Positions 6,219 to 26,889 of a stretch of DNA of 32,000 nt are shown piece by piece. The position numbers were made by a program, and so were the translations under genes. Position 1 is the stretch's first letter. Each line of letters opens with the position of its first letter. The DNA is from an uncultured Chloroflexia bacterium (GTDB taxonomy: Bacteria; Chloroflexota; Anaerolineae; Anaerolineales; Anaerolineaceae), in contig OY969938.1 in assembly GCA_963704755.1 (NCBI GenBank), forward strand, positions 690,001-722,000. Reading direction: 5' to 3'. The notes beneath the pieces are model-generated. The model was given only the letters and a program-made list of their open reading frames with translations, was not told the DNA's origin and made no database searches.

Positions 6219-6247
6219 TCAAAGACCTCTTCGGGGATTGTTTTCAG

Positions 6248-7351: not shown

Positions 7352-7380
7352 GAGGACGAATCGATTACGGGATGGAGGAT

Positions 7381-9670: not shown

Positions 9671-10363
9671 TCAAGACGCATACGTGCCCGATTCGGCCAA
9701 TTTGAACACGATTTCCAGCACTTCCTCAACGCTGATCCGGTCGGTGTCAATGACAATGGCGTCTTCAGCCGCTTTCAAAGGTGCATGCTGCCGGCTCGAA
9801 TCGATCTGGTCGCGCACCTTCAGGTTGGACAGGATATTATCGTAATCGGCCAATTCACCCCGGTCTACAATTTCTTTATAGCGCCGCCTGGCGCGTTCTT
9901 CTACCGATGCTTCCAGGTAAATTTTCAATTGCGCTTCGGGCAATACAATCGTACCGATATCTCGCCCAACCATGACCACCTGGCCCTGTTGGCCGATCCG
10001 TCGCTGCTGTTCGGTGAGAACTTTCCGCACGCCCGGGTAAGCCGAAACCCTGGAAACGTTGGCGTCTACTTCCGGTTGGCGGATTTTCCAGGTCACATCT
10101 TCGCCATCCATAAATACTGTTTCCAGGCGACCATCGTCAACAGCCGGCGGTTCGATATCGATAGTGATCTCACCGGCCAGCCGGGTAATTGCTGTTTCAT
10201 CATCCACATTCCCCAGGTGCTGTAATGCTGCCAGAGTTGCCGCCCGGTACATCAGCCCTGTGTCGAAATACAGGTAATTCAGCCGGTGCGCCAGGTTTAC
10301 ACCCAGGGTAGATTTTCCGGACGAAGCCGGTCCATCGATGGTGATGATATTCGGTAAATCCAT
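9671..10363 (-). CDS. cmk: Cytidylate kinase
   Basis: ITIDGPASSGKSTLGVNLAHRLNYLYFDTGLMYRA (P-loop plus the cmk signature) and the later GRDIGTIVLP. The track ORF starts at TTG 10381. I prefer ATG 10363 (MDLPNIITIDGP) because AAGGAAAG lies 6 nt upstream. Confidence 0.9.
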   Translation of the reverse strand: MDLPNIITIDGPASSGKSTLGVNLAHRLNYLYFDTGLMYRAATLAALQHLGNVDDETAITRLAGEITIDIEPPAVDDGRLETVFMDGEDVTWKIRQPEVDANVSRVSAYPGVRKVLTEQQRRIGQQGQVVMVGRDIGTIVLPEAQLKIYLEASVEERARRRYKEIVDRGELADYDNILSNLKVRDQIDSSRQHAPLKAAEDAIVIDTDRISVEEVLEIVFKLAESGTYAS

Positions 10364-10401
10364 GCAAACTTTCCTTATCAATTTTCAGGATAGGTGTATT
10401 T

Positions 10402-12117
10402 TTAACTTTGTGAGTTCGAGGTCGTACCGGTTGGGAAAAGATCGGAGCGTACCCATAAAATGATCGAGGTCTTTTCGCTGGGGGCCGTTTTAAACGCAAA
10501 CCAGCGCAGCCATTCTTTCGGCAGTAAGATCGACCAGTTCGGCGCTTCCTCCCAGGTAAAGTCCTGGCCGCTGTATTCCGCCGGTTGAGATAATCCTGGC
10601 TGGTCGGCCGTCACGATCATATCAGGTTTTGCATCTACCGGAAGGGTATCCGAGAAAATAGCATTGCTATCATCCCGCAATACCCAGCGTAAGGCCGGTG
10701 AATCCAACCCCTGGACGACAATCTCGATGGATTGGGGGTCGCTATTATTGCGGGTGCTGATATCCGTTACCGAACTTGTAAATAGATTTTCCTGGCCGAA
10801 AAGCGGATCTGCCCGCCAGATCTGTGCCGCCGGGTCATTTCCCAGGCCGGCCGCTGACCAGGTGGTCGAGAAGCAAAAGAAACTCAAGGCGGCCAAAATT
10901 CCCCAGGACAGGCCTTTCACGGTCATTGGGGTGCCCCACAGGATATAGACCAGAATCCCCGAAATCGCCAGGAGGACAATGGCGATGACCGCCCGGATCA
11001 GGCGTAATTGTATATCTGATTCTCCCTGCATGTTTCCGAAAATGTTCAGAAAGTCAAAAAATAGAAAAACGGTCAGCGCAGCCGCACAAGCTGCGTAGAT
11101 GATCGTTTCGCGGGATTGCTCAGGGTTGTATTCCAACAAATCCGCAAGCTGGCGCGCCGCCAATGCTAACAGCGGCGCCAGGCACCAGACCAGGTCGGCA
11201 GCCTGATGGGCCGGATACACCAGAACGACGACCAGCGCGACCATCCATCCGGTAAAAAGGGCTCGATCTACCAGGGATTCATTGCGGAAACCCACCACGG
11301 ATTGAATCACACCCAGTACCAGCCCAACAGGTTGGTATACGATCAAGGCGAGGATCAAATAAGCAAAAGAGATTCCCGAAGGGCTGAACCAGCCTTTCCA
11401 GAAATTCACAAGTCCCAATCCAGCCGCCGAAATGCCATCCGGGACCAGCATGCCCAGACTGCCGATCGCCAGGACGGTTCCGCCCAGCCATAACAATCCC
11501 TGGCGCCAATCGAAGGGCTGCATTTCCGGCCGATCTTCTCCATCTCTTCCGGTTCCTAACACAAAACGGACAATAAGCCAGGTGATCATGCAGATCAACA
11601 ATCCCAACCAGATAGAAGGTCCGCCCAACAGGGCCAGTCCCAGGCTGACGCCGGCCAGAGCCGTCTTGCGCTTCTGGAAAAAGGCGAACCCTGCCGCCAG
11701 GAAAAGCACACTGAGCATGCGTCCATCCGCGCTTCGCGATACCGCTACCAGGCCCGGATCGATAGCCAGCAGAAAAGCCAGAACCAGGGCAGCCTTTTGG
11801 CCAATTTTTTCGTGGAAGAGCAGCGGAACCAGGCACAGGAGGGTCCCTGCCAGGGCGGGGATCAGCCGGGCCAGAAAAGTCGAGGGACCCAATAGAAAGA
11901 ACAGGGCAGTCGTTCCAACCAGGTATAACGACTGGGCTCCCTGGTACAGGATGGGCTGATGCCGGACCAGCTCGAGCGCCTGCAGTGCCAGTTTCGCCTC
12001 GCTGTCGCCCAGCGGCAATTGTCCCAGCCGTATAAACCGGATCGCCAGCGCGATAAGGAATACCCCGGCATACAGACTCTGTTCGATAGTAATCTGTTTG
12101 TTCTTCATCCTGGTCAC
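10402..12117 (-). CDS. Polytopic GT-C-like / PMT-like membrane protein with C-terminal soluble domain (possible TIGR03663-type companion of YYY proteins)
   Basis: 571 aa with about 12-14 hydrophobic helices. The N-terminal first-loop motif RFIRLGQLPLGDSEAKLA resembles the R-x-x-L...D-E-A loop of PMT_2/ArnT-like enzymes. The ~130-aa hydrophilic C-terminus is probably extracytoplasmic. GTG 12117 overlaps the upstream TGA (GTGA); ATG 12108 is an alternative start. The family assignment is by eye and only moderately secure. Confidence 0.6.
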   Translation of the reverse strand: MTRMKNKQITIEQSLYAGVFLIALAIRFIRLGQLPLGDSEAKLALQALELVRHQPILYQGAQSLYLVGTTALFFLLGPSTFLARLIPALAGTLLCLVPLLFHEKIGQKAALVLAFLLAIDPGLVAVSRSADGRMLSVLFLAAGFAFFQKRKTALAGVSLGLALLGGPSIWLGLLICMITWLIVRFVLGTGRDGEDRPEMQPFDWRQGLLWLGGTVLAIGSLGMLVPDGISAAGLGLVNFWKGWFSPSGISFAYLILALIVYQPVGLVLGVIQSVVGFRNESLVDRALFTGWMVALVVVLVYPAHQAADLVWCLAPLLALAARQLADLLEYNPEQSRETIIYAACAAALTVFLFFDFLNIFGNMQGESDIQLRLIRAVIAIVLLAISGILVYILWGTPMTVKGLSWGILAALSFFCFSTTWSAAGLGNDPAAQIWRADPLFGQENLFTSSVTDISTRNNSDPQSIEIVVQGLDSPALRWVLRDDSNAIFSDTLPVDAKPDMIVTADQPGLSQPAEYSGQDFTWEEAPNWSILLPKEWLRWFAFKTAPSEKTSIILWVRSDLFPTGTTSNSQS

Positions 12118-14723
12118 TTCCCGGCTAAGGCATCGAAAGTAGTGTAATCCGGCGCTTCATAGATTGTCACACTGCTGTTGCCGAATACTGCCGTCAGATT
12201 TGCCTTGAATTTATCTTCGCTAACCCGGTAAGTCGTACGTTCGGTCGGGCCAACATAAATATAGCGTATATTGTAACGCTCGATAATCGTCTTGGTCTCT
12301 TCCCAATTGCTCGTCTGGTAAAGCGTCTGGATATCCGTCGGTCGCGAGCCAATCGCGGTGTTGTTCCCGCGCCATTCGCCTTCGTGACCGGCCCAGCCCA
12401 GCACAGATGGCTCTCCGCTAAAGGTGCTTACGCGGGCGTATTGTGATTGGTATTGCCCGCCGGTCGCCTCGATGACTACACCATAAGGCGCTTTAGCCAG
12501 CCAGTCGAATGCGGCCCATTCATCCGCGGAATAAAATGAGGAGGCGCCATTCAGGGTCAAATGGATCGAATCACCATTCGCTTCACTGATTTTCTCCGGC
12601 AGTTGTATGACCGGATACACAAAGGCCAGCACCAGCGTCACAGATAACAGCGCTTTAACCCACACGGCACGCCGGGTTTTCAATTCTTCCCAGACCACGG
12701 CAAAGCCAAACGCGCCGGCCAGGCTCCACAGAATCCAGGTCTGGAAATAGAACTTGAAGATGGTGTTCATGCGTGTGCCGAAGCCATCCAATAAGTAGAA
12801 ATATTCCGGAAAGAGGGTCAACCCCACGCCCAACAGGACCAGCAGCAAAACAAACCCATCCGGCGTGTTGTTCTTTTCGTCTGTGGCTGCCGGGTTCGCC
12901 GCTTCGCCCGCCTGCGGTATAAATCGCCGGCCGCGCAGTGAGAGCAAGCCCCAGGTCAGCGCCAGCATCACCAGCAAGGTCAGCCAGGTACCGGGACTTT
13001 CCAGCCGGCGCAGAAAGGATTGTTGAAATAATTCCTGCCCGCTGCCCGCCTGGATCTGGAAGAACTGCGCCGCCAGGCTGTTCAAACGGTCTCCCAGGTT
13101 GACGATCGAATTGTTCGACAAATCCATCATCGCCTGGGCCAGTGCGTCACCGGCTTCGATGCCCAACCCGGCCAGGATCATCAGCAGCCACAAGCCGCCC
13201 ACGACCAAAGCCGAAAAACCAAACGCCTTGCCCAGGGCCGGGCGCACGGCTTGTTTTCGCCAGCAATAGATCAGCCAGACGAGCACCGGCACCAGCAGCG
13301 GGGCAAACATTACCCAAAATTGGACCCCGCGTGTGGAGAAAATCATACTGGGCAGGAAACCACCCGCCTGAGAAGAGAAACCCAGGTAAAAAGGCAGGTA
13401 CAGCACTATTCCACAGATAGCCAGCAGCAGCGCCATCTCGACGAATTCGACCAGGCGTTTCCCGCTCCAGCCCAGCCGGCGGAAACGGGTCAAAGTGTAC
13501 ACGGCGCTGAACAGGCCCACATAAATCGGGAAGTCCCAGGTATTGATGAAGGACAGCCCGCCAAAAACGACCGCGCTCAGCCAGAATCCCGGGTCTCGGA
13601 ACCACTTACCCGGAGAAATACCCCCAAATCGTTGGGCCAACCCCCATAGATAAAGATTCAAGGCCAGGGCAACCGCCAGCAGGACAAATGGCATATCCAG
13701 GACGTGCGGGTGCATATCGGCCAGCAGGTATGAAAAGAAGGGAAACTCGTCGATGACCTCTTTATTGCCATCGATCACCTGCGTTTCGCCGTTGACCACC
13801 TGGGTCTGGCCATCGATCAAATTGCGGTCCTGAATGACCCGCGAGCCGGTCCACCAGGAATAATAGCGGTGCGGAATGAAAGTGTACGGCTGGGTGGGCG
13901 GGTCGCGCAGATCGCGGATATCCAACCAGGTCCAGAAGTTGGATGGCGTCTGCCCGGCAGCCGCATCGGTCCACAAGACGCCCTTCGAATGGAGCACGTC
14001 CAGGATGCCGGACATATTCCCGATCAGCAGGATCAACACCGGCGCCAGGAAGGCCCAACCACGTGCTTTTCTTTCCGCCTGGCCGTTCTCCGCGCGCCGT
14101 TTGAAGAACAGGATCAGCAAATTGTAAAGAATACCAAATGCGGCCAGTGCGGTCAGAGCGAACCACAGCGCAATCGCCACGTTGAAAGCCACCGTGGTGA
14201 CCGTGCCGGTCATTCGTACCAGCAGGCTGACGATGACGTAGCCAAAATAGTAATACGAGATCGAATACCCTGAAAGCCAGGGATCCTGCGGTGGGAAGGA
14301 CGGCGAGCGGATGATCGAATTCAGGAAAGCCATTTCCATCGGCTTTTCGGTGTTTAAAATCTCCGGGTTGGCCGCCCGCACCAGCGCCCAAAGCACGAAA
14401 GCGACCGCGAATAGGGCTTCCGCCGTCAAGATCAGGCGGCGATGCGCGCTGATCCAGGCCTTGAATTCCACCCAATTACCGCGCAAACTGGCCAGCGAAA
14501 CGACCGCCAGAATGGCAAGCCCGATCAAAACCCCGCCGGGGTTATTTTCCAGAATGCCCAGCGAGGCTAACAGCCAGAAGGCATAGCCCCACACCAGCAA
14601 GGCCAGCGGCTTGGCCAGGGTATAGCCCCGGTCAGGCAGGAATCGAAGAAAACGGTAGGCCAGCGGAAATGCCAACCATCCGGCAATCAAAACGACCAGG
14701 TACCAGCTTATTATTGCAATCAT
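12114..14723 (-). CDS. Chlor_Arch_YYY (DUF2298 / TIGR03662-type) polytopic membrane protein
   Basis: 869 aa and very hydrophobic. It carries the signature PWLSGYSISYYYFGYV preceded by NTEKPMEMAFLNSIIRS. A second conserved block is IDEFPFFSYLLADMHPH. The C-terminal soluble domain is GVVIEATGGQYQ...IRYIYVGPTER. It is a clear paralogue of the C-terminal half of the 1754-aa neighbour. Confidence 0.85.
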   Translation of the reverse strand: MIAIISWYLVVLIAGWLAFPLAYRFLRFLPDRGYTLAKPLALLVWGYAFWLLASLGILENNPGGVLIGLAILAVVSLASLRGNWVEFKAWISAHRRLILTAEALFAVAFVLWALVRAANPEILNTEKPMEMAFLNSIIRSPSFPPQDPWLSGYSISYYYFGYVIVSLLVRMTGTVTTVAFNVAIALWFALTALAAFGILYNLLILFFKRRAENGQAERKARGWAFLAPVLILLIGNMSGILDVLHSKGVLWTDAAAGQTPSNFWTWLDIRDLRDPPTQPYTFIPHRYYSWWTGSRVIQDRNLIDGQTQVVNGETQVIDGNKEVIDEFPFFSYLLADMHPHVLDMPFVLLAVALALNLYLWGLAQRFGGISPGKWFRDPGFWLSAVVFGGLSFINTWDFPIYVGLFSAVYTLTRFRRLGWSGKRLVEFVEMALLLAICGIVLYLPFYLGFSSQAGGFLPSMIFSTRGVQFWVMFAPLLVPVLVWLIYCWRKQAVRPALGKAFGFSALVVGGLWLLMILAGLGIEAGDALAQAMMDLSNNSIVNLGDRLNSLAAQFFQIQAGSGQELFQQSFLRRLESPGTWLTLLVMLALTWGLLSLRGRRFIPQAGEAANPAATDEKNNTPDGFVLLLVLLGVGLTLFPEYFYLLDGFGTRMNTIFKFYFQTWILWSLAGAFGFAVVWEELKTRRAVWVKALLSVTLVLAFVYPVIQLPEKISEANGDSIHLTLNGASSFYSADEWAAFDWLAKAPYGVVIEATGGQYQSQYARVSTFSGEPSVLGWAGHEGEWRGNNTAIGSRPTDIQTLYQTSNWEETKTIIERYNIRYIYVGPTERTTYRVSEDKFKANLTAVFGNSSVTIYEAPDYTTFDALAGK

Positions 14724-14732
14724 AAAATGGGA

Positions 14733-15101
14733 TTATTTCGCGTCGGGTTCTGGCCAGTGGAAGTCCCCATTTTCTTCGGCGGGGAAAGGCAGCACCCGCA
14801 GCACTGCCTGGGGATAAACCGGGCCATAAATATGAGGATAACTTCCACCGTTCGGGGCTAACTCGTAGCGGACTTCGACCGGCAGGGTTTGCGTATCGAT
14901 CTCCAGCAAGACCAGGCCGTTATTACCATGATAAAACGAATTGGCCGTATCGACAACCTGATTCCGGGTCGAGGCGTGAATGAACCCCTCGCTGTCGAGC
15001 GATGCAGCCCGGTATTCTCCATTATCCAATACCTGGCGCCAGGCCGTCTCTTCCGTGATGTGATAGATCAATCGTTCTCTGAACGCAGTCTCTTGCGTCA
15101 T
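14733..15101 (-). CDS. DUF952 family protein
   Basis: 122 aa. LIYHITEETAW...SLDSEGFIHASTRNQV...LVLLEID...YELAPNGGSYPHIYGPV matches the DUF952 pattern as I remember it (I-Y-H/K-I, GFIH-S/C-S, FPHLYGPL). The ATG overlaps the upstream TGA (ATGA at 15098-15101), and GAGGTG lies 5 nt upstream. Confidence 0.82.
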   Translation of the reverse strand: MTQETAFRERLIYHITEETAWRQVLDNGEYRAASLDSEGFIHASTRNQVVDTANSFYHGNNGLVLLEIDTQTLPVEVRYELAPNGGSYPHIYGPVYPQAVLRVLPFPAEENGDFHWPEPDAK

Positions 15102-18100
15102 TTCAGCACCTCATATATGGACGTATCGCCATCTTGAAAAACTTTCTTCCACAAATCTCCGTCGAGTTGGTCGAACTTGGACAACCCAATCGCGTTGTAA
15201 TAATCCCGCTCGAGCTGGCCAACGACGATGTAACCAACGTTGTATTTTTTCAGAAAAGCCTGGGCAATCTCACGGTTAGGAGTCTCATAAAAATTCTGCA
15301 CTTCGGCCATGCGCTCGCCCACCAGGTTGGAGGTGAGCACGGCCCGCTGTTGGCTCTCATGCACGTCCCATCCGATAATGGTCGGCAGGCCGGTGTAAAT
15401 TGAGAAGCGCGAACCCCAATTGTAGGTCCCGGTACTGGCCTCGACGATCACCGGGGAGCCCTGGACATTCTCCTGCATCCAGCGAATGCCGGCATAGTCT
15501 TCGCTCAAGCCCAACTGACCCCAGGCACTGCTGTACACCGAGGTTTGCATATAGGCCATTCCATCCAGGGTGTGCGGCGCTAAACTGCTCATCCGGTCAT
15601 CGATCTTGGATAAACCGGCCGTAAAAGGATACAGCAAAGCACAAGCCACCAATACCGAAACCGCCCCCGCCCACACCCGGCGCAGGTTCGGGCGCCAGAC
15701 TTTCATCACGGACGGGATCAGCCAGGTGAGACTCGCCGCAGCGCTGATGGCAAACAGCACCCAGGCCTGCAGATAGAACTTGAAGACGGTATTCATTCGC
15801 CCGGCGCCTTCGATGACAATCAGGTCAACCGCCAGGGTCAGGATGTCAGCGGTGCCGATCAGGAACAACACGAACCTTTTTGCATCCGGCATAGCCGGCC
15901 GCAAGAGCAGCACCAGGCACCAGACCGCCAGGGTAACCGTAAACCAGGCAATTCCGATCCCATAGATGGTCAGATAGATGGCAGCAACCAGGTAAGCCGC
16001 CAGACCGATCCCGAGCCAGTTGCGGTACGGGCGCAATTTATTCAAGGATGAAAGCGGCGTACTGGCCATCCAATCGACCGTCTCGCTCACCATCCAGGAG
16101 ATAATCACCGTCAGGAATACACCCCAATGGATTATATATGAGTCAAAGGGGGTCTTTTCGTCGTGGGCCAGGTCGATCTTGTTGTAGCCCAGTGCGTACC
16201 ATTGGGTAAACGGCCGGAAAAGCAAGCTGCCCACCAGGTAGAACAACGCCAGGACACCCAGGGTAATCAACAATTTGCGGGCCCATTCAGGCAGATCGGA
16301 TAGAAAACGCTGGGGCGGGCGGATGTAACGCATGCCACCATAGAAAATCGCCACCCCGCCAATGGCCAGGTAAGTAGGAAAATCCCAGGTATTGGTCGGG
16401 CGCAGCGAGAAAATAGCGAGCGCACCCACAAAAATAGTGGCCAGGAATGGCAGCCAGGCTTTCCCTTTTTCGTCCAGTGACCAGCGCCACTGCCGGAAGA
16501 CCAATCCCAGGGCCCAGGCCAGGGCCAGGATCGTCAACGGCAGGGCGTAGAAGTGCGCATGCGGATCGGCATACAGGAAGGTAAAGTTTGGAAATTCGGT
16601 GATGGCCGAGCCCGGCAGCGCCCGGCTGGGAATCCAGTACCAATCGCCGATCCCATAGGGCAGGCGTGCGCCTTGCAAAACGGCCACCAGGCCCTGGAAC
16701 ATCCAGGAAATCTGGGCGAACAGGCTGCCGCCGTCTATGGATCCGCCCGGCGCGGCCAGGCGCATCAACCCTTGCCAGATCATGCGGATGGTTCCCAGGT
16801 TGCCCAGGATGATGGTGCCCGCGGCGGCTGACAGCCCGCCCATCAAGGGCAGCTTATCTCGATGCAGCCAGGGTTCGGCCAGTTCCTGTTCCGCCGGCGT
16901 GCGTCGCAGGCCCTTGACCAGGTTCCAGCCCAGCGAGAACGCCCCAAAGGCAATCGTCGCCGCGATGGTCGGCATGAACAGGTTATAGGCAATACTGGGA
17001 ACGATGCCCAACCATTTGATCGGCACACCGACCAGCACAAAGCCGTAGTAATAGTAATTGATGTATGAACCGCTGAACCAGGGGTTATAAGGCGGAAAAG
17101 TTGTGCTTTTCAACACCGCGTTGAGGTAGGCAAAATCCATCGGCTTCTCGCCGCCAAAATACGGGTGCCAAAGATCCGGGTTGCCAAAACGCACCCCCAC
17201 AAAAACCAGGAACAGCACCAGCGAGAGGATTTCGACCGTCAGGAAATAACGCTTGCGGCTTTTGATCTCGTCCAGCAGTTCGCCGCGCTGCCAGAAAGCT
17301 AATCCCAGGTTGGCGACCAGCAGAATCAGGAACGCGATTGAAATCGTCAGCCGGCTGAAGCTGATCCCGTTCGAACCGGCGATCCACACCAGCCAGGAAA
17401 GCAGCAGCATGCCAAAAATCCGCGCCAATGGAAAGCCATGATCGGATAGGCCGTGCATGGCTATGCGCAGCAAAGGATAGCAAGCCCAGCCCATCAGCGT
17501 AATGACCAGGTACCAAAAGATCAAGGCCAGGCCGGGATAGCGGTTGAAGAGCGCATTGGTATCGAATATCTGTGACCAGGTCCCACCCGCCTGCTGTACC
17601 GCCAGACGGTCCTCCGGCAGGTCGAGATTGGCCGGATAGCTGGGCGCTTCGCCAGGAATAACGTGCACCACACTGGTCAAATCCACGCTGCCCAGGATGC
17701 TGGCGACCTTCTGAGAGTCGTAATCCGCCGTTTTCTTGAAGATCAGCACCTTGGGATGGTCGTAAACCGTGAAGGCTTCTTCGGCGAACTGGTCGTTGAT
17801 AGTGATCGGGCCAATATTCGGGTAGGATTCGAACACTTTAACCAGTTGGAAGCCCAGGTCGCCCTGGAACATGCCCGGTTCGGCCACCCGGTAGCACCAC
17901 AGCATATCCTGCTCGGCCGGGCAGCCTAACAGGTTGCGATAATAAGTGCTGGTTAACGGGTAGCGTTCCTCGACCCGTGTAGTCGTGCCCCACTGGCGGT
18001 TCGAAGAGATAAAAATGTAGTCGGCGCTGTCCATGGTCGTTTCAAAGCGCTGCAGCTTGGCCTGGTCATCGTCGTAATACATCTCGAAGTTCAGGTTGTT

Positions 18101-20362
18101 CTGGTAGATCCCGCCGAACGGATCGTAATTATCCATCCTCAGGGGCAGGCCATCGTCCCAGCTCAATTCGTTTGCCGGCGCGCTGCCGTAAATCGCCAGC
18201 GCCCCCTGGCCCGAGACCATTTGCAGGTGGACGGTATAGGTCATGCCCTTGACCAGCGTAACCGGCGTGCCGAAGCTGACCTCGAAATTCTGCCCGCGCA
18301 GGTCCTGGGTGGTGCTGGTGAAATCACTGCTTATCTGGGCCGATGCCAGCGTCTTGGCCGAGCCGGATTCGGCAATGCTGATTTGCAGAGTCTTTTGGCC
18401 CGGGCCGGCTGCCAGGTCCACGGCCCTGAAAAGCTGCAAGCCCTGGATCGGCCCGTCCTGGTTGGCCTGGAACTGGATCTCCTGATCCTGGCCCGGACGG
18501 ACGGTGTCCATCAAAGGCGCGGTGGTCTGGACGGATTGGCCGGTCAGGCCGGTAATGGTCAGGCTCGCCGATCCGCTCAGGTTTAGCAAGCCCGCTTCGC
18601 TCGGATTGGAGATATCCACCCGGTAGGTCTGGCCTTTTTGTACCAGGATAGGTGTGGACAGGTTAATCTGGCGTTCGACATTCTGACCGGAAGAAAATAC
18701 GTCGCTGAGGGTGCCGTAGCCGCTGGAGCCGGTCGAGCCGTCCACCGCGCTGACGGTTACATCCAGGGTCTTTTGGTCCGGTTGGTTGAGCAGGTCTTCC
18801 ACACTGCCCAGGGTGACCGAGCTCAGCACCCCATCCTCCTGGGCGCTAAAGCTGATCGAGGTGCTCATCCCCGGCGCAAGGGTCAAGGATGGGTCGTAGG
18901 AAAGCGGTTGGCTGGTCGAGCCATCGGCATATTCGACCGTCACCGGGCCGGGTAGATTGGCGTAGATCCATTGGCTGGCAGCCACGCGCGTATTGGGTTG
19001 GATATAAATTCTGGTGAAAGCAAAGGCCCAGCCGGCCGTCGCCAGAAGTCCCAATGCACCGATGATTACAGCGGCGATCTTCCAGCCCCGCTGGGCCGGT
19101 TGGCCCGCTCGAATTTTGCGTACCGGCACATAATGCCATAACGTGTAAATGCCCCAGCCGGCCATCAACGCCAGGTTCGGGTAAATCGGTAGCTGGTAAC
19201 GCATGGTTGGGTTGCCCACCAGCGACTGCCAGATAAAGTAAGCCGCCGTCCAACCCCACAGAATAGCCGTCTTGGGCCATTCGCCTTTGATCATGCGCCA
19301 GCCCATCCACAAGAAACCGGCCCAGGCCAAAATACCCATCGGCCAGCCCATCCCCCACTGGACCATGTTCTGCAGCGAGAAGGTCACCGGGCGGCGCGCC
19401 CATTGCAGCGCAGGCGGGAAGTCAACATCACCGCTGGTCTGGGCAGCCAGGTCCTTCAGGTTTTGGATCCACTCCGGGTTGGGCAGGATATCGAAAAAGG
19501 AGGGTCCTTGAAAGGCATACGGCTGTAAGATGCGAAAGACCAGGAAGGCAGCGATGCCGCCCAGGATCAGTTCGCGCACCATCGCGGTCCAGTAGCGTTC
19601 ACGTTCGGCGCGCGGCAGCACCAGGATACGCACCAGCCAGGCTGCCGGGAGCAAAGCCGCCACCGGGGCCGTATTCACCTTGCAGGCCATGGCAATGCCA
19701 ACCGCCACGCCAAAGGCCAGGCTGGTGACCAGCGACTTCGAGCGGTACCATTTTCGTTCTGCCGGCTCTCGATATTGAATCGGTTGGGTCACCAGCACGG
19801 CGGCAAAAAACAAAGCCAGGGTGCTGAAAGTGGTTGCAAAAGAGTCGGAAGTGTAAAAATGCGACTGCTGGATTTGCATGACCGCCACGGCCGAAAAAGC
19901 CGCACCCAAAAGCCCCACCTTCTGGTTGAACAGGCGTTCACCGGTCAAAAAGATAAAGAAGATGGTCAGCAGGTCGAAGCAGGTCGAAAGCACCCGCCCA
20001 ATCATCAACGCCGAGCTCCAACTGCTGGCGCCATACAGCCACTGCATCAGGTAGCGGGTCAGGATCACCGGGAACGTGCCGTACACGAAGAAACCATGGC
20101 CGACGTTATTGGGATTCAAGGTCGAGATGGCCGTGTTGAAATACTCGGCGATGCTGTGGACGGGGCTCATATCGGCGGTCACCCAGACCAGGAAGCGCTC
20201 GTCCGGGTGCAAATACTGGAAATCGCCCCAAAAAATGCCGGAGAAACGGAAGTAGGCCGCGGCCGCCAGAATTAAAACCAGCACCAGGTCACCGATTAAT
20301 ATCTGGCGCTGGATGCGGTCTGACTTACTCGAAGAGATTTCGTCCATGGAGGATGTGGTCAT
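15098..20362 (-). CDS. Giant fusion membrane protein: N-terminal PMT_2/GT39-like GT-C module, tandem beta-rich extracytoplasmic repeats, C-terminal Chlor_Arch_YYY (DUF2298) module
   Basis: 1754 aa. The N-terminus has YLHPDERFLV, GRVLSTCFDLLTIFFIFLTGERLFNQKVGLLGAAF and IQQSHFYTSDSF, all PMT_2-like. Residues ~470-900 are hydrophilic and contain an internal duplication. Residues ~925-1754 repeat the YYY architecture: GGEKPMDFAYLNAVLKS, PWFSGSYINYYYYGFV, ITEFPNFTFLYADPHAH and the C-terminal SPVIVEASTGTYN...VGYIVVGQLER. The ATG overlaps the upstream stop (ATGA at 20359-20362). Confidence 0.85.
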   Translation of the reverse strand: MTTSSMDEISSSKSDRIQRQILIGDLVLVLILAAAAYFRFSGIFWGDFQYLHPDERFLVWVTADMSPVHSIAEYFNTAISTLNPNNVGHGFFVYGTFPVILTRYLMQWLYGASSWSSALMIGRVLSTCFDLLTIFFIFLTGERLFNQKVGLLGAAFSAVAVMQIQQSHFYTSDSFATTFSTLALFFAAVLVTQPIQYREPAERKWYRSKSLVTSLAFGVAVGIAMACKVNTAPVAALLPAAWLVRILVLPRAERERYWTAMVRELILGGIAAFLVFRILQPYAFQGPSFFDILPNPEWIQNLKDLAAQTSGDVDFPPALQWARRPVTFSLQNMVQWGMGWPMGILAWAGFLWMGWRMIKGEWPKTAILWGWTAAYFIWQSLVGNPTMRYQLPIYPNLALMAGWGIYTLWHYVPVRKIRAGQPAQRGWKIAAVIIGALGLLATAGWAFAFTRIYIQPNTRVAASQWIYANLPGPVTVEYADGSTSQPLSYDPSLTLAPGMSTSISFSAQEDGVLSSVTLGSVEDLLNQPDQKTLDVTVSAVDGSTGSSGYGTLSDVFSSGQNVERQINLSTPILVQKGQTYRVDISNPSEAGLLNLSGSASLTITGLTGQSVQTTAPLMDTVRPGQDQEIQFQANQDGPIQGLQLFRAVDLAAGPGQKTLQISIAESGSAKTLASAQISSDFTSTTQDLRGQNFEVSFGTPVTLVKGMTYTVHLQMVSGQGALAIYGSAPANELSWDDGLPLRMDNYDPFGGIYQNNLNFEMYYDDDQAKLQRFETTMDSADYIFISSNRQWGTTTRVEERYPLTSTYYRNLLGCPAEQDMLWCYRVAEPGMFQGDLGFQLVKVFESYPNIGPITINDQFAEEAFTVYDHPKVLIFKKTADYDSQKVASILGSVDLTSVVHVIPGEAPSYPANLDLPEDRLAVQQAGGTWSQIFDTNALFNRYPGLALIFWYLVITLMGWACYPLLRIAMHGLSDHGFPLARIFGMLLLSWLVWIAGSNGISFSRLTISIAFLILLVANLGLAFWQRGELLDEIKSRKRYFLTVEILSLVLFLVFVGVRFGNPDLWHPYFGGEKPMDFAYLNAVLKSTTFPPYNPWFSGSYINYYYYGFVLVGVPIKWLGIVPSIAYNLFMPTIAATIAFGAFSLGWNLVKGLRRTPAEQELAEPWLHRDKLPLMGGLSAAAGTIILGNLGTIRMIWQGLMRLAAPGGSIDGGSLFAQISWMFQGLVAVLQGARLPYGIGDWYWIPSRALPGSAITEFPNFTFLYADPHAHFYALPLTILALAWALGLVFRQWRWSLDEKGKAWLPFLATIFVGALAIFSLRPTNTWDFPTYLAIGGVAIFYGGMRYIRPPQRFLSDLPEWARKLLITLGVLALFYLVGSLLFRPFTQWYALGYNKIDLAHDEKTPFDSYIIHWGVFLTVIISWMVSETVDWMASTPLSSLNKLRPYRNWLGIGLAAYLVAAIYLTIYGIGIAWFTVTLAVWCLVLLLRPAMPDAKRFVLFLIGTADILTLAVDLIVIEGAGRMNTVFKFYLQAWVLFAISAAASLTWLIPSVMKVWRPNLRRVWAGAVSVLVACALLYPFTAGLSKIDDRMSSLAPHTLDGMAYMQTSVYSSAWGQLGLSEDYAGIRWMQENVQGSPVIVEASTGTYNWGSRFSIYTGLPTIIGWDVHESQQRAVLTSNLVGERMAEVQNFYETPNREIAQAFLKKYNVGYIVVGQLERDYYNAIGLSKFDQLDGDLWKKVFQDGDTSIYEVLK

Positions 20363-22596
20363 GGCCTGGTTGGTGGAACGTAATACTCCAAAAAGTCCTT
20401 CCCGGGCAGGTTGGCTTTATACAGATAGAGGGATCCATCCGGATAGAGGGTCTCCAAGTCCTGAACCGTTTCGCTATCCTGGGTATCCACAATGAATAAT
20501 TTTTCACGGGTGTCCGCCAGGGTGGTATCCAGGGCCGAGCGGTCGAGGGCAAAATCGCGCACACCGTAGCCGGCTTCGATCCCGACCAGGCGGGTGTCCA
20601 CCCAATAGGGGTAAGGGATCACGTAGGCCGTATCCGGGCTGCCGACTGAATCGGCAAAGCTGCGGATGACGTGGCCGAGATCCGAGGTGTTCCAGACTCC
20701 ACTCAGGAATTCCTGGCTGTATTGGCGGAAGACCAGGTCGAAATTCTGCGAGGCGGAAACGAACACCAGGCCCACCACCAGCACGCTGGGGACGATCACG
20801 CGCATTTTCCCGGCCAGGCGCTCTCTTAGGGCCGAATAGATACTTTCGATCCCGTAAGCCGCCAGGATAAACACAGGCACAATCGCAGCCCCGGTCCGGT
20901 TGAGCGACGGGTTTTCATCCGGGAAGGCCAGCGAAAGGATCGAGGGCAGCATAAGCAAAGGGATCGAAAGCAGCATAAACAGGTCGATCCAGTTGTGTTT
21001 ACGCAGGTAACGTACCACCACCAGCACCAACCCCAGGAAGAATAACGCCGCTCCGATCACGTCCAGGGCCGGCCGGTAGGGCACCGAATGGACCCAGATC
21101 TGGCCATCGTTATAAAAAAACATGACCAGCGAATTCCACAGGTTTTTCAGGAAGATCACCACAATCGAACCGGGATAAGCCGATTCGGTATTGGTGGTGC
21201 GGGTCAGCACCCGGTACCAGAACATCTCCGGGTTATCCAGCATGTAGCGGAACAACGGTAGAAAGATCGCCAGGGAGACGGAGGTCAGGATGACCAGCCC
21301 ACTGATGGTTTCCTTACGGTTACCCTGAGCAGCACGGTGCAGCAGATAAACGCCGATGCAAACGACCAGCACAAGCGGCATGATCCGCGCCGAGGTATAA
21401 CCGTGCAGCCCCATCCCCAGGGCGATGCCCGACCAGATGAAGTCGTTACGCTGGCGCCGGCGCAGCCCGCGGATGAGGTAATACAGGGCCGGGGCGGCGA
21501 ACAGCGGGTAAAGCGGAAAGCGCAGCCCAACCCGTGAAATCACGTTTGGCCAGTAGGCGATCCCGGCCAGCAAAAAGGCCAGCAAACCAACCCGGCGGTT
21601 GCCCAACTCTTTGCCCAGCAAGTAGATGTACGGCAGGGTGAAGAATCCGGCCAGCGTGGTCCCGATTTTCAGGGTCAGGAAAGAGATCTTGGTGCCAAAG
21701 ACAATCGCGACCAGGGCGCACATATACATCTGGATGGCTTCCCGGCCGGTGTTGCGCGGGAAGAAAATCGAAAACTTACCGGAAAGGACGTCGCTGATAT
21801 CCAGCAATTTCTCGGCGTGGTCGCTGAACATTTCGCCCGGCACCTGCGCCAGGTGATAGAAACGAAAAAATGCCACCACAGCCACGCACAAAACTACCAG
21901 CAGAGTCCAGCGGTCGATTTTAAGCGACCAGGAAGGCTTCCGGTAGAAAGAGCGCGCGCGGGCAACCAGCGATAGCCGGTTGTTTTCCGGCAGGTAAAAC
22001 CCATAGATGAGAAAAACCAGCCCGGACAGCCACAGCGTCAGGTTGAGGGCGGTAAAGCGGTTCCCACCAAACAGGCCGAACGACGCCAGCAGCAAGACGA
22101 CCGCGATATAGATCGGCATCCGTTTTACCGACAGGCCGAATGGTTTCGCCGAAAACTCGGGCAGGTCGTCGAAAGCCCATTCCCGCCGAACAATTCCAAG
22201 GACGGCAAAGGCCGCCGCCAGGATATACAGCAGTACCGCCGGGAGGATCTTCTGGTCGGGCGGCTCCATTTGCAATTGGGCCGCGATTGCCAGTACTAAG
22301 GCCAGCAGGATGGACCAGGGAAACCCCTTCCGGCCCTCGCGCTCGTCCGCCGGCAGGCTTACAGGCTCGATTTCCCCTTCATTCGCCGGCTCTTCCGGCA
22401 ACTCTTCTGAATTATCCAGCAAGGCTTCGGCCCAGGCCGGCCTTTCCATTTCAAGCGGCTGGTTGTGCAGTTCCGCCGGCGCTTCGTCCTGTGGCTCGCT
22501 GGGAATAACCGGTGGTTTACCCTTCCAGGGTGTCAGTAAGGCTTTTATGTAGTCGAGTACACTCGGTTCTTTCATAATAAATGAGTATTCCAGCAC
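20359..22596 (-). CDS. ArnT/PMT_2-like (GT-C fold) polytopic glycosyltransferase with acidic N-terminal extension
   Basis: 745 aa. FRFYHLAQVPGEMFSDHAEKLLD (first-loop acidic motif) and TTLAGFFTLPYIYLLGKELGNRRVGLLAFLLAGIAYWP are typical of PMT_2/ArnT-like proteins. About 13 helices and a ~120-aa soluble C-terminus. The start is uncertain: GTG 22596 from the track, or ATG 22575 (MKEPSVLDY). Neither has a clear SD. Confidence 0.72.
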   Translation of the reverse strand: MLEYSFIMKEPSVLDYIKALLTPWKGKPPVIPSEPQDEAPAELHNQPLEMERPAWAEALLDNSEELPEEPANEGEIEPVSLPADEREGRKGFPWSILLALVLAIAAQLQMEPPDQKILPAVLLYILAAAFAVLGIVRREWAFDDLPEFSAKPFGLSVKRMPIYIAVVLLLASFGLFGGNRFTALNLTLWLSGLVFLIYGFYLPENNRLSLVARARSFYRKPSWSLKIDRWTLLVVLCVAVVAFFRFYHLAQVPGEMFSDHAEKLLDISDVLSGKFSIFFPRNTGREAIQMYMCALVAIVFGTKISFLTLKIGTTLAGFFTLPYIYLLGKELGNRRVGLLAFLLAGIAYWPNVISRVGLRFPLYPLFAAPALYYLIRGLRRRQRNDFIWSGIALGMGLHGYTSARIMPLVLVVCIGVYLLHRAAQGNRKETISGLVILTSVSLAIFLPLFRYMLDNPEMFWYRVLTRTTNTESAYPGSIVVIFLKNLWNSLVMFFYNDGQIWVHSVPYRPALDVIGAALFFLGLVLVVVRYLRKHNWIDLFMLLSIPLLMLPSILSLAFPDENPSLNRTGAAIVPVFILAAYGIESIYSALRERLAGKMRVIVPSVLVVGLVFVSASQNFDLVFRQYSQEFLSGVWNTSDLGHVIRSFADSVGSPDTAYVIPYPYWVDTRLVGIEAGYGVRDFALDRSALDTTLADTREKLFIVDTQDSETVQDLETLYPDGSLYLYKANLPGKDFLEYYVPPTRP

Positions 22597-22617
22597 ATTC
22601 GAGTTTGCTGAAAATAT

Positions 22618-22629
22618 CCTTCGCGAAGG
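22618..22629. promoter_or_regulatory. Perfect 12-bp palindrome CCTTCGCGAAGG in the only sizeable gap of the glycan locus
   Basis: Read directly from the sequence. It lies 22 nt upstream of the GTG at 22596 and is followed on the minus strand by ATATTTTC. It could be an operator or a weak stem-loop. No family recognised. Confidence 0.3.
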
Positions 22630-22803
22630 TTGATTCCGGCCAGCTCAATGGTAATCGAATTCTTATTCCTCTGCCAACCTAAATCAGGGCTAAAACAATT
22701 CATCAGGCTCGTTGAAGATATTTCCGCATAGAGTTATTTGCAGTGCTTCACCGCGCAATCTACTCTATTCGGGGTTCTTACCCATTCAATTGAGCAATTA
22801 CAG

Positions 22804-23616
22804 CTAAGCAGCCTTGCGCCGGGTGATGTAGAAAGAATAAGAACCGTCCGGTACTTGCTTTGGCTCATCATAATAGGGCTGGCAAATCTGCCGGGTGAGG
22901 GCCAGGTTCCAGGGCACCGGCGCCAGGATCCACTTGCGGAATAAGAAGTGGCTGACGAGCGATGGCAGGCCAAAATAGTGGCCCCATTCCAGCACCGACA
23001 GCGCCTGGGGAGAAAAGTAATGCCACCAGTTTTCGATTTCGAAACCGGCTTTTTCCAGGCGAACCCGCCAGGTCTCGGGGTCGTCGCAGTGGTGGTGGCG
23101 CGAAATCCGGATGAAAAAATTACGGTAAGCCCGGGCCATTCCGTGCAAGCCAACCTTGTCCATCAGGCGGGCAAAAGACAGGTTGGGCAGGAAATTCTGG
23201 TTGGGCACACAGAAAATGAACGGCGCGCCAGGTTTGAGCACCCGGGCGACTTCCGCTAACACTGGGTCGAGTTCGGGAATATGCTCCAACACCGAATTGC
23301 TGACCGCGCTGCCGAAATACTGGCTGGGGAAAGGCAGCCGGTCCCCTGCTCCCTGGATCACCTCGTGGTAACCGCCTCGTTTTCCGGCTTGACGGACCGG
23401 TCCGGTCCATGGATCCAGGCCCACGTCCAACGGGTGATCGAAGGCAATGGTCGCAAAATGGCCATCGCCGCAGCCCAGGTCGAAGACCGGCCCAGGCAGC
23501 TCGATGTCGCGGTAAACTCGCGCTTCAACCGCGCGCAGTAGCCCGCGGAAATAGGGCAAATCCTTGATTTGTAGCCACAGGTAATCTTTTACCGGCGGAG
23601 TAGTTGTGGTTTGCAA
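22804..23616 (-). CDS. Class I SAM-dependent methyltransferase (Methyltransf_11-like)
   Basis: 270 aa. Motif I is VFDLGCGDGHF, followed by LPFPSQYFGSAVSNSVLEHI and LKPGAPFIF. The TTG start at 23616 has GGAGGG 7 nt upstream. Confidence 0.82.
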   Translation of the reverse strand: MQTTTTPPVKDYLWLQIKDLPYFRGLLRAVEARVYRDIELPGPVFDLGCGDGHFATIAFDHPLDVGLDPWTGPVRQAGKRGGYHEVIQGAGDRLPFPSQYFGSAVSNSVLEHIPELDPVLAEVARVLKPGAPFIFCVPNQNFLPNLSFARLMDKVGLHGMARAYRNFFIRISRHHHCDDPETWRVRLEKAGFEIENWWHYFSPQALSVLEWGHYFGLPSLVSHFLFRKWILAPVPWNLALTRQICQPYYDEPKQVPDGSYSFYITRRKAA

Positions 23617-23639
23617 ATAATATCCCTCCGAAATCCGGC

Positions 23640-24806
23640 TTAATGGGCAATCTGCTGCTGAATTTCGCTAAACAATTTTTCGTATTCGATGGCGATGTTA
23701 TCCGGCACGTAGGTCTGGCGGATCGGCTCTGGGTCGCGGATGAAAGCGGATCGGTTGGCAAAAATTTCCAGCAGCGAATTGGCCAGGGCATTTGAATCGC
23801 CGATCGGAATGATCTTACCCATCTGGTGGTTCAGTACCGGCTGGCGCACCCCGGGCAGATTCGAGGCAACACAGGGCGTTCCGTTCAACATGGCTTCGAT
23901 TTGCACCAACCCGAAGGCCTCGGTCGAATTTAGCGATGGCAGTACCAGTGCGTCCAGGTTGGGATAAAACCGGGCCATATCAGCCGGGTCCAGGTTGCCC
24001 AGGAAAATCCAGTTGCCGCTGACCTGGTAGCCGTTGATCTTGGGGACCAGGCGGGCTAAGTAAGCCTCTTCGCCAATAATATTCTGAAATGCACCGGCGA
24101 ACTGGACCTGCGCCTGCGGGTAAGCTTCCAGGATTTTCGGCAGTGCGTCCAGCAGTACTTCCACCCCTTTTTCGGTGGCAAATCGGGCGGCCATACCGAT
24201 GACCGGATGCTGGCCTTTCGGGTTCGTTTTGAGGCGAAAGGCCTGAACCAATTCTGGTTCAACTTCAGGCAGAACCACCGGCGGCGGAATAACCCTTAGT
24301 TTATCCAGGTAACGTTTCAAATAGCTCGAATTCTCGGCATAATCCCGCGTATACGTCACGATCCGGTGGGTAAAACGGGCAGCCAGCTCGTTCATTAGCA
24401 GAACGCCCTGGTTGGCGGCCCAACTGAGCAGCCCGCGCGGCATGCGCAGGTCACAATGATAAGTAATCACGGTCGGTTTGTGCTGCAGCCGCCCGCGTAA
24501 GGCTACCCCGGCCGCGTCGAACTGTGGCAGGTGAAGTTGAATCCAATCGTTTTCTTTGACCAGCCGGTTGGCGATGAAGCCAAACTGAGGCATGATCACG
24601 CCTTTGCTCAGGTGGATCAGAACCGGCACACGGATGATCCGCACACCATCGACCGTCTCTTCGCGCGGTAATTCAGGGTTGAATTGCGAAGTCATCACGG
24701 TGACTTCATGGCCCCTTTCGACCCAGGCTTTTGCCAATCGTTCCGCGTAAATTGTCAGGCCGGAAGTGTGCGGCCTGTAATAGGTAAGGACAATGAGAAT
24801 ACGCAT
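23640..24806 (-). CDS. GT4-family (GT-B fold) glycosyltransferase
   Basis: 388 aa. The N-terminus MRILIVLTYYRPHTSGLTIYAERLAKAWVERGHEVTVMT is typical of WcaI/WbuB-like GT4 enzymes. The E-x7-E motif is EAFGLVQIEAM. Confidence 0.88.
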   Translation of the reverse strand: MRILIVLTYYRPHTSGLTIYAERLAKAWVERGHEVTVMTSQFNPELPREETVDGVRIIRVPVLIHLSKGVIMPQFGFIANRLVKENDWIQLHLPQFDAAGVALRGRLQHKPTVITYHCDLRMPRGLLSWAANQGVLLMNELAARFTHRIVTYTRDYAENSSYLKRYLDKLRVIPPPVVLPEVEPELVQAFRLKTNPKGQHPVIGMAARFATEKGVEVLLDALPKILEAYPQAQVQFAGAFQNIIGEEAYLARLVPKINGYQVSGNWIFLGNLDPADMARFYPNLDALVLPSLNSTEAFGLVQIEAMLNGTPCVASNLPGVRQPVLNHQMGKIIPIGDSNALANSLLEIFANRSAFIRDPEPIRQTYVPDNIAIEYEKLFSEIQQQIAH

Positions 24807-24816
24807 ACCGCTACTC

Positions 24817-25842: not shown

Positions 25843-25869
25843 TCAAAGACCTCCCGAACAACTATGAAA

Positions 25870-26889
25870 TCAATTTAAACTATTGCTGTTCTTACGGACG
25901 CGTAAATCGCGGAACAGGTTCCCGATCGACTGCCCTTGCCTTACCAGGGCAATCATACCCAGGATGCCGGTAATAACAAACTGGATAAAATGTATAGTGA
26001 TTGCGCAGGCCAGGGCAGGCGTCTCTTCGATCCCCAGGATCGACAGCGCGCCTACTATGGCCGCCTCGAAAGTGCCCAACGCTGCCGGCGCAGAGGGGAT
26101 CGCAATTCCCATCGCCAGTACTGCATCGGTAAACATGCCCCACCAATAAGGCGCCGCCGGGGCAATCGCCAAAATAAACACGTAATATTCCGTCATGGCC
26201 ACGACCCATGAGAGTGCAATCGTGCCTAGAGCCAGCAAGAACTGGCACGGGTTTGCCAGGGTGCTGAAACCCTCCAAAAGCGAGTTGACCTGGGGTGCCA
26301 CGTACTTGCGCACAAAACCCCAATGGCTGCCCAGTTTATCGACCAACCCGCTGAAGAAAGACTGGTAGCGAGTCATCAGGAACAGCACCACCAGCATCGC
26401 GATGACGGCCAACAGGGTGATTACGGCCACCGAACGGGCCCAGGCCATTCCCAATGCCATCGGCAGGGTGATCAACATCATCGCAGCAGCCATCGCCAGG
26501 TCGAAAGACCGCTCGATGACGATCGTCGAAAGGATACCGACCGGGTTTAGCCCGGCCGCCTGGCCTAATAAAACCGCCCGCCCAAGCTCACCGGCCCGGA
26601 AAGGCAGCAAATTGTTGAGCAGATAACCCTGGTTGATGGCCCAGAACGATTGCATGACCGTTACCTTGTTGCCCAGGATGGTCCGCCAGGCCAGGCCGCG
26701 TATGTATAAAAACAAGAGGGTTAAGATCGCTACTGCGATAATATATATCAGCTTTATTTGCTCAATGGCCGGTCCTAATTCCTTCCAATTCACCGTACGA
26801 AAGACAAGGAACAATGCCACGGCCGAAATTATCACCCCAGGCAGCCAACCCTTCACCCGTTGCCAGAGATTTTTCCGTTCCGGATTCAA
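25870..26889 (-). CDS. Flippase-like membrane protein (UPF0104 / LPG_synthase_TM-type)
   Basis: 339 aa with about 8 TM helices. The basic N-terminus followed by [27 protein letters not shown], and [12 protein letters not shown], are typical of this family as I recall it. The TTG start at 26889 overlaps the lepA TGA (TTGA), and GGAGG lies 4 nt upstream inside the lepA 3' end. Confidence 0.7.

Follow-up and report, generated by a model that had tools for sequence, protein, structure and literature searches.

A conserved 1754-residue protein of Anaerolineae is predicted to join two GT-C-type glycosyltransferase modules in one chain

Can two different membrane glycosyltransferase modules work from a single polypeptide chain? 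N-glycans, O-mannans, mycobacterial arabinans and modified lipid A are all products of GT-C enzymes, and, to our knowledge, every characterised GT-C enzyme has one catalytic module per chain, often as a dimer. The question is raised by a gene of an uncultured Chloroflexia bacterium (family Anaerolineaceae; assembly GCA_963704755.1, contig OY969938.1, positions 690,001 to 722,000), in a stretch of 32,000 nucleotides that is called the window here and is numbered from its first letter. On the minus strand of the window, an open reading frame (ORF; 15098..20362) with an ATG start encodes 1754 amino acids and a stop. An earlier note on this stretch, made from the letters alone, had described this ORF as a fusion of a PMT_2-like GT-C module with a YYY module; the ORF and all of the motifs named there were located (HPDERF at residues 52–57, IQQSHFYTSDSF at 164–175, AEEAFTVYDHPKVLIFKK at 860–877), the YYY motifs in both YYY proteins of the locus. 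Structure prediction presents the protein as a tandem of two glycosyltransferase-type modules rather than as two different functions joined, with a predicted layout of a GT-C module, two beta-sandwich repeats, an alpha/beta connector and an oligosaccharyltransferase (OST)-like GT-C module. The fusion is thus read here, with rather more confidence than doubt, as one chain in which two GT-C-type membrane glycosyltransferase modules, both dependent on lipid-phosphate sugars, stand in tandem and serve an envelope glycan. We infer that both modules are catalytic, what type of donor they use, that they cooperate, and what kind of product they make.

The fusion itself is genuine and ancient, and is conserved in Anaerolineae and Aggregatilineales. 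Full-length orthologues (1736–1845 aa, 47–58% identity, 98–100% coverage) number more than 120 among the 5.8 billion proteins searched; they come from Bellilinea, Longilinea, Thermanaerothrix and many Anaerolineae metagenome-assembled genomes (MAGs), and are annotated as 'DUF2298' or 'YYY domain-containing protein' and nothing further. The closest named relatives are Bellilinea species (57% identity for the fusion protein and 85% for LepA), and, with each species represented by one genome, at least 591 stretches that encode the protein were detected. The earlier note had asked whether the 5.3-kb ORF might be an artefact of assembly or of a frameshift that joined two genes. Four related MAG loci do carry a broken gene, in two or three frames each (L041, L074, L076 and L078). 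In contrast, the gene is a single uninterrupted ORF (median 1761 aa) in 72 of the 75 loci that hold all three parts, which come from independent assemblies, and the linker is itself conserved, with Gly927, Thr928 and Trp929 invariant in the 34 aligned orthologues on which all invariance counts for the N-terminal half and the linker are based. The breaks are limited to 'MFD' MAGs, which are assumed here to be long-read (Nanopore) assemblies. The frame changes sit at different positions in the different copies (query residues ~251–263, ~601–619, ~870–969, ~903–921 and ~1222–1228), and the broken copies are therefore judged to be sequencing errors. The artefact explanation is refuted for practical purposes.

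Two candidates for natural split forms were considered and set aside. The break in L076 lies near the module junction (query residues ~903–921) and looks like a natural split, but this reading of the four frameshifted loci was rejected. Likewise, most of the short representatives that comprise only the middle region and the YYY module are contig-end fragments that have no starting Met.

The C-terminal half of the fusion is a YYY protein over its whole length. TIGR03662 ('Chlor_Arch_YYY') matches residues 945–1752 with 506.6 bits (cut-off 300.25) over model positions 3–726/727, and DUF2298 (PF10060) matches with 351 bits (cut-off 27.8). A free-standing YYY paralogue of 869 aa (12114..14723, minus strand; TIGR03662 490 bits, DUF2298 367 bits) lies two genes downstream, and the colinearity that had been proposed between it and residues ~925–1754 holds far beyond chance, in two colinear BLASTP segments (28% identity over 486 columns, E 3e-32; 31% identity over 241 columns, E 2e-25). 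The motifs pair accordingly between the fusion and the 869-aa protein: EKPMDFAYLN with EKPMEMAFLN, PWFSGSYINYYYY with PWLSGYSISYYYF, EFPNFTFLYADPHAH with EFPFFSYLLADMHPH, and VIVEASTG...YIVVG with VVIEATGG...YIYVG near the C terminus.

Both halves of the fusion were modelled with AlphaFold2 (AF2) from orthologue alignments, and the folds were compared with the PDB by Foldseek. The model of residues 925–1754 (m263f74214048; pLDDT 87, pTM 0.90) shows a YYY module (residues 926–1590; 15593..17587, minus strand) with a GT-C fold and three extra N-terminal helices, followed by a globular domain (residues 1591–1754; 15101..15592, minus strand). The half as a whole matches the C-mannosyltransferase DPY19 (E 3.8e-6), AftA (9e-5), AglB (6e-4) and PglB (0.03), and its last ~165 residues, which include a near-invariant G-W-x-x-H at 1664–1668, match the C-terminal globular domain of AfAglB-S2 (3vu0, chains A–C) with a probability of 1.00 and a TM-score (target) of 0.50–0.55. 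That the YYY module is itself a GT-C module of OST-like build is thus well supported by the predicted fold, though not proven, and the YYY protein is no longer the non-GT-C partner that the earlier note had made of it.

The same matches support the alternative that the YYY module is an OST-type enzyme that transfers a pre-assembled lipid-linked oligosaccharide en bloc to envelope proteins, with the N-terminal module adding or priming a further sugar; the chain would then be a bacterial machine for protein glycosylation. In addition to the whole-chain resemblance to AglB and PglB and the AglB-like globular domain, an invariant D-x-H-x-H in YYY proteins recalls the D-x-H metal ligands of AglB (a parallel taken as a lead only), and the giant relatives described below end in TPR repeats. 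TPR repeats usually bind proteins. However, the WWDYG, DK/MI and TIXE/SVSE motifs do not occur in the expected order, the nearest sequence to WWDYG being GWDVHE at 1664–1669, about 75 residues into the C-terminal domain, and the YYY half has no STT3 match in Pfam or NCBIfam. Moreover, the top structural matches are DPY19 and then AftA, neither of which is an OST, and the fusion protein carries glycan-type beta-sandwiches and not TPR repeats. We know of no description of OST-type protein glycosylation in Chloroflexota, and an OST role for YYY is considered unlikely.

The tandem glycosyltransferase reading is consistent with the residues that YYY proteins share. In about 166 copies (free, fused and duplicated) taken from the 149 best representatives of the family, Glu1072, Tyr1103, Tyr1104, Glu1256, Asp1266, His1268, His1270 and Trp1534 are invariant, and Lys1073, Pro1074, Met1075, Arg1247, Asn1524, Lys1528, His1668 and Glu1718 are nearly so. 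Many of these residues lie in three motifs, encoded on the minus strand. The GGEKPMDF loop (residues 1070–1077; 17132..17155) has Glu1072 in 166/166 copies and an acidic residue (Asp or Glu) at 1076 in 157/166; the name-giving NYYYYG motif (residues 1102–1107; 17042..17059) has Tyr1103 and Tyr1104 in 166/166 and Tyr1105 in 163/166; and the EFP-x7-D-x-H-x-H block (residues 1256–1270; 16553..16597) has Glu1256, Asp1266, His1268 and His1270 in 167/167. This last block is a candidate metal or phosphate site, and the invariant set as a whole looks like a catalytic or metal-phosphate site that is kept in every copy. Because the invariant acidic and histidine residues persist in free, fused and duplicated copies alike, all YYY copies would be functional.

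A different function for these copies is conceivable. The YYY modules might not be transferases, and might instead act as translocases of lipid-linked sugars or as scaffolds that pass donor or acceptor to the N-terminal module and to the 745-aa GT-C protein encoded next to the fusion, which would be the true GT-C enzymes. The GT-C-like Agl23 of Haloarcula, a proposed hexose-P-dolichol flippase, acts as a flippase in vitro, where it translocates a lipid-linked oligosaccharide (PMC11182771); genes for YYY and an Agl23-like protein adjoin in 59 of the 80 related loci that form the neighbourhood sample, and the searchable literature reports no activity for DUF2298 proteins. Against such a role, the invariant Glu/Asp/His set in predicted outside loops and the OST-like globular domain look catalytic, and the locus already has two flippase candidates, a TIGR00374 protein and the Agl23-like protein, so that translocation or scaffolding by YYY appears doubtful.

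The N-terminal module (residues 1–470; 18953..20362, minus strand) resembles PMT_2, ArnT and AglB proteins. In the AF2 model of residues 1–930 (m9396d9cc1414; pLDDT 85, pTM 0.82), the chain is polytopic and helical to ~470, continues with ~260 residues of beta strands and ends in an alpha/beta domain. Its best PDB match is AglB (E 7e-8), followed by ArnT (4e-7) and Pmt4 (5e-7), with STT3, ALG9/12, EmbC and PglB among further matches, over an overall E range of 7e-8 to 1e-4; by this prediction the fold is clearly GT-C. The label 'PMT_2-like' that the module had been given is borderline in sequence. Pfam finds no PMT_2 domain in the whole 1754-aa protein, residues 1–470 alone score 26.0 bits on PF13231 (cut-off 26.1), and many orthologues carry PF13231 or PF02366. 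The label does agree with the predicted GT-C fold. An archaeo_STT3 match is confined to this module and reaches 25 bits (cut-off 450), and TIGR03663 (Agl23) does not match the module. All six residues of H52-P-D-E-R-F57 are invariant in the 34 orthologues, and the AF2 helices place this motif (20192..20209, minus strand) in the first outside loop after the first transmembrane (TM) helix. The 'DE' motif of PMT enzymes is established, and by analogy Asp54 and Glu55 are candidate catalytic acids of the N-terminal module.

A low PMT_2 score might also mean that one module is a degenerate pseudo-enzyme that serves as a structural partner only, and a GT-C dimer is generally known to permit asymmetry. 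This possibility seems remote given the invariant charged loop residues of both modules (in the 34 orthologues for the one, and in ~166 copies for YYY), which favour the view that each half is an enzyme.

Between the two membrane modules lie two beta-sandwich repeats, predicted to be outside the membrane, and a connector, all on the minus strand. Repeat 1 (residues 472–606; 18545..18949) is all-beta in the AF2 model and is homologous to repeat 2 (residues 607–735; 18158..18544) with an hhalign probability of 99.9 (E 1e-31). Repeat 2 is DUF4082/PHR-like: when scanned alone, it exceeds the cut-offs of both DUF4082 (29.5 bits; cut-off 28.4) and PHR (24.9 bits; cut-off 23.6). Foldseek matches of the beta-sandwiches are phage baseplate and fibre proteins, and the repeats are probably glycan-binding. 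The alpha/beta connector (residues 736–925; 17588..18157) has densely invariant columns, ends in ...FAEEAFTVYDHPKVLIFKK and leads into the linker ...AGGTW. It is kept in giant relatives that have no beta-sandwiches, yielded no family or fold assignment, and gave no hhalign signal against the C-terminal domain of YYY. In orthologues of 1625–1708 and 1897–2002 aa, the number and length of the beta-sandwich repeats differ by lineage, and the best BLAST segment spans only 64–73% of the query; the variable middle region is perhaps adapted to the acceptor.

The predicted topology is consistent with the suggestion in the earlier note that the modules act on the outer face of the membrane. HPDERF is placed facing outward because the N terminus of the fusion is rich in Lys and Arg. 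In the YYY module, three entry helices (943–968, 977–997 and 1004–1024) are followed by the strongly Lys/Arg-rich loop QRGELLDEIKSRKR and a helix at 1037–1059, and GGEKPMDF and NYYYYG are placed outside because this preceding loop is Lys/Arg-rich. Conserved acids of both modules, Asp54-Glu55 in the one and Glu1072 with Asp/Glu1076 in the other, thus lie in loops predicted to be outside. The free 869-aa YYY begins directly at its first entry helix, which argues for an N terminus outside the membrane, and a free relative (P0173) has a signal-anchor helix ahead of a conserved GGTW linker. Since the N-terminal module is predicted to end outside and YYY to start outside, the two could be fused without a change of topology.

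On this basis, a working scheme can be proposed. A cytoplasmic GT4 enzyme, fed by an SDR enzyme, would glycosylate a lipid carrier or anchor, and a flippase-like protein, the Agl23-like protein or both would move lipid-linked sugars outward. At the outer face, the 745-aa protein, the N-terminal module, the fused YYY and the free YYY would extend or decorate one acceptor. Within the fusion, both active sites would face outside and use polyprenyl-phosphate-linked sugars, and the two modules, joined as a covalent GT-C heterodimer, may serve one acceptor one after the other, while the beta-sandwich repeats may hold the glycan. The product would be a glycoconjugate of the envelope that is conserved in Anaerolineae, either a lipoglycan, a wall polysaccharide or a glycoprotein.

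Several points weigh against this scheme. Global TM-scores are modest (0.3–0.55) and root-mean-square deviations large for both halves, and no relevant solved structure was found by sequence, whether the query was the profile of the full length, that of YYY or the N-terminal module, so that the GT-C assignment rests on predicted folds. The borderline PMT_2 score belongs here as well, as do the YYY motifs, which depart from the OST order, and the invariant residues, which mark a candidate site by their positions in the sequence. Family scans found no GT2 polyprenyl-phosphate sugar synthase in the window. Finally, the searchable literature holds no functional study and no biochemical or genetic data on any DUF2298 protein, and searches on envelope glycosyltransferases of Anaerolineae, TIGR03662 and PF10060 found no functional study.

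The relatives of the two modules were compared as well. The earlier note had held that the locus contains both split and fused versions of the modules. This is correct for the YYY half, which has the free 869-aa protein as a counterpart, and not for the N-terminal half, for which the locus has no close free counterpart. The 745-aa protein is remotely colinear with the N-terminal module (BLASTP E 0.001 over 56 aa; hhalign E 1e-4 to 1e-3 over 227 columns). The 571-aa protein of the locus was considered as a paralogue of the module and rejected, with no similarity by BLASTP or hhalign. A comparison of the membrane parts of the two modules by hhalign also gave no signal, so that nothing in the sequence speaks for an origin of one half by duplication of the other, and the membrane part of YYY gave none against the 745-aa or the 571-aa protein.

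Across the sample of 80 loci, the N-terminal module is always fused to YYY, and no free-standing paralogue of it was found. According to a published table (PMC8756737), a further Chloroflexi genome has DUF2298 and PMT2/PA14 as separate genes next to each other. The Rosetta-stone argument, by which the fusion was taken to mean that the two modules act together, accordingly lacks its usual free homologue on the N-terminal side in these loci. A functional link between the modules is indicated by the conserved fusion, by a canonical gene order (35 of the 36 loci with full flanks) and by the existence of larger fusions.

These larger fusions were found with a family profile built from the two YYY sequences of the window, which detects 3,847 clusters (50% identity) with E ≤ 1e-30, a number that rises to 8,670 when the limit is relaxed to E ≤ 1e-3. 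Among the best 149 representatives, which were classified with purpose-built hidden Markov models of the modules, the architecture of the fusion gene (N-mid-YYY, some of them truncated) accounts for 68, free YYY for 54, mid-YYY (mostly contig-end fragments) for 8 and YYY-YYY for 4. The remaining 15 are N-connector-YYY-YYY proteins of 2434–2744 aa from Chloroflexota, most of which have a C-terminal TPR region, and such giant relatives have three GT-C-type modules per chain. Four of the giants (P0121, P0124, P0125 and P0131) consist of a PMT_2-like module, a connector without beta-sandwiches and two YYY modules; TPR repeats are C-terminal in P0124 and P0131 and were not found in P0121. A further protein, P0222 (2315 aa, from JGI, on a 9-kb contig), seems to have a 745-like GT-C (28% identity, E 2e-14) ahead of N-mid-YYY; it is a single cluster and may be an artefact of gene calling or a frameshift. 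The TIGRFAMs text of TIGR03662 already mentions an N-terminal region, two YYY copies and TPR, and DUF2298 occurs in Archaea in addition to Chloroflexota. A bolder generalisation, for which confidence is low, takes YYY/DUF2298 proteins for OST-like GT-C enzymes that would make up a large and so far unstudied class (at least 8,670 clusters). In Chloroflexota, gene fusion would have joined them into single-chain assembly lines of two to three catalytic modules plus carbohydrate- or protein-binding domains, and these would glycosylate envelope proteins or lipoglycans either en bloc or in several steps.

Comparison with known systems shows where the fusion protein departs from them. It shares with TIGR03662/DUF2298 the whole model and the signature motifs (YYYxG, EKPM and EFP...DxHxH), and differs by a 925-residue N-terminal extension of GT-C module, beta-sandwiches and connector. 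The YYY module resembles AglB, PglB and STT3 (GT66) in having a predicted polytopic GT-C domain followed by an outside globular domain, but it has no sequence similarity to them, lacks WWDYG, DK/MI and TIXE, is predicted to begin outside the membrane and to carry three additional helices at its N terminus, and is not a member of that family. The N-terminal module shares with PMT_2, ArnT and PMT proteins (GT83, GT39) the predicted fold and a D-E pair, placed by prediction in the first loop on the outside, and differs by the two beta-sandwich repeats, the unique connector and the fusion to YYY. Agl23 (TIGR03663) is resembled, below the cut-off, by the 571-aa neighbour, whereas the N-terminal module has no match to it.

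A parallel in overall logic is offered by the mycobacterial arabinosyltransferases EmbA, EmbB, EmbC, AftA and AftD, which have GT-C cores with outside carbohydrate-binding beta-sandwiches, form dimers, make a lipid-anchored or wall polysaccharide, and act downstream of cytoplasmic GT4 steps and a flip; in Foldseek, EmbC aligns with the N-terminal module over 918 columns (E 3.6e-6). In the Emb and Aft enzymes two separate chains dimerise, whereas the fusion has two different GT-C modules in one chain, shows no sequence similarity to these enzymes, and is proposed as a covalent counterpart of the EmbA-EmbB and Pmt1-Pmt2 dimers. The proposed logic is similar to that of the assembly of mycobacterial lipomannan, lipoarabinomannan and arabinogalactan (PimA/B, flip, and the GT-C enzymes Mpt, Emb and Aft).

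The fusion gene is embedded in a run of eleven co-directional, tightly spaced genes on the minus strand (9671–28688), from lepA to cmk. In the order of transcription these are lepA, a flippase-like TIGR00374/LPG_synthase_TM gene (25870–26889), an SDR sugar epimerase/dehydratase gene (24817–25842; accessory, 26/80 loci), a GT4 gene without equivalog assignment (23640–24806), a SAM methyltransferase gene (22804–23616), the 745-aa GT-C gene, the fusion gene, a DUF952 gene, the 869-aa YYY gene, the 571-aa Agl23-like gene and cmk; the minus-strand order 745/1754/DUF952/869/571 is as it had been given in the earlier note. The TIGR00374 flippase-like protein and the GT4 protein are a candidate pair of lipid-linked primer synthase and translocase. 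A core consisting of the flippase-like, GT4, 745-aa, fusion, YYY and 571-aa proteins is kept in Aggregatilineales with 31–36% identity, and a free YYY gene lies downstream of the fusion in 77 of the 80 loci. The housekeeping genes lepA and cmk bracket the glycan block throughout, which is odd.

The immediate neighbours overlap the fusion gene. Four nucleotides (ATGA) are shared between the stop of the 745-aa gene and the start of the fusion gene, and again between the stop of the fusion gene and the start of the DUF952 gene; the 869/571 pair also overlaps by 4 nucleotides, the overlaps of these three pairs being ATGA or GTGA, and a 9-nucleotide gap separates DUF952 from the 869-aa gene. The 745-aa GT-C (20359..22596, minus strand; PMT_2 34.6 bits; syntenic in 63/80 loci) begins with ~90 acidic, low-complexity and apparently cytoplasmic residues and has several extra helices before its PMT_2 core (residues 291–447); its GTG start, with a 207-nucleotide gap upstream, is uncertain. 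The Agl23-like (TIGR03663-like) polytopic membrane protein of 571 aa (10402..12117, minus strand; syntenic in 59/80 loci) scores 50.5 bits on TIGR03663 (E 1.6e-13), below the cut-off of 126.25. The DUF952 protein of 122 aa (14733..15101, minus strand; PF06108, 96 bits) is an accessory insertion found in 17/80 loci, a lineage-specific one, translationally coupled by its ATGA overlap within an operon of membrane proteins.

Scans for regulatory signals gave little. Promoter-like sequences are at the level of shuffled sequence, terminator-like sequences are somewhat more numerous (32, against a shuffle mean of 22.5, sd 4.6) and mark no clear operon boundary, and an Rfam scan of the window returned nothing. 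Downstream of cmk, three sensor kinases lie in a row on the minus strand (1542–9609), with a C69/AAT-like Ntn-hydrolase (455 aa) among them. One is a PAS histidine kinase (742 aa), another is a receiver-kinase hybrid (367 aa), and the third is a kinase with dCache, HAMP, GAF and PAS domains (dCache-HAMP-GAF-PAS, 1102 aa). On the other side of the block (28896–30146, minus strand), a single protein combines a response-regulator receiver with a ParA/TadZ-like ATPase and hints at a Tad pilus locus upstream.

Part of this picture is already known: the sequence family, the orthologues and the multi-domain forms are visible in public databases. New are the predicted GT-C type of both halves, the AglB-like C-terminal domain predicted for YYY, the presence of one invariant Glu/Asp/His set in each YYY copy, the topologically seamless fusion, the series of two- to three-module chains and the class-wide conserved envelope-glycan cluster. 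The practical value is limited by the presence of the architecture in databases and by the reliance of functional statements on prediction. Anaerolineae are abundant filamentous bacteria of digesters and sediments, and the chemistry of their envelope is essentially unknown. If both halves are active, the protein would represent a GT-C heterodimer made covalent in nature, with relatives that go as far as three modules, and the function of DUF2298, a family with thousands of sequence clusters, could be approached for the first time; if the reading of YYY as an OST-like class is true, a bacterial counterpart of the OST/PMT machinery would exist in Chloroflexota. The cluster, with its flippase-like protein, GT4 enzyme, four GT-C-type modules and Agl23-like protein, would define the core machinery for the envelope glycan of Anaerolineae.

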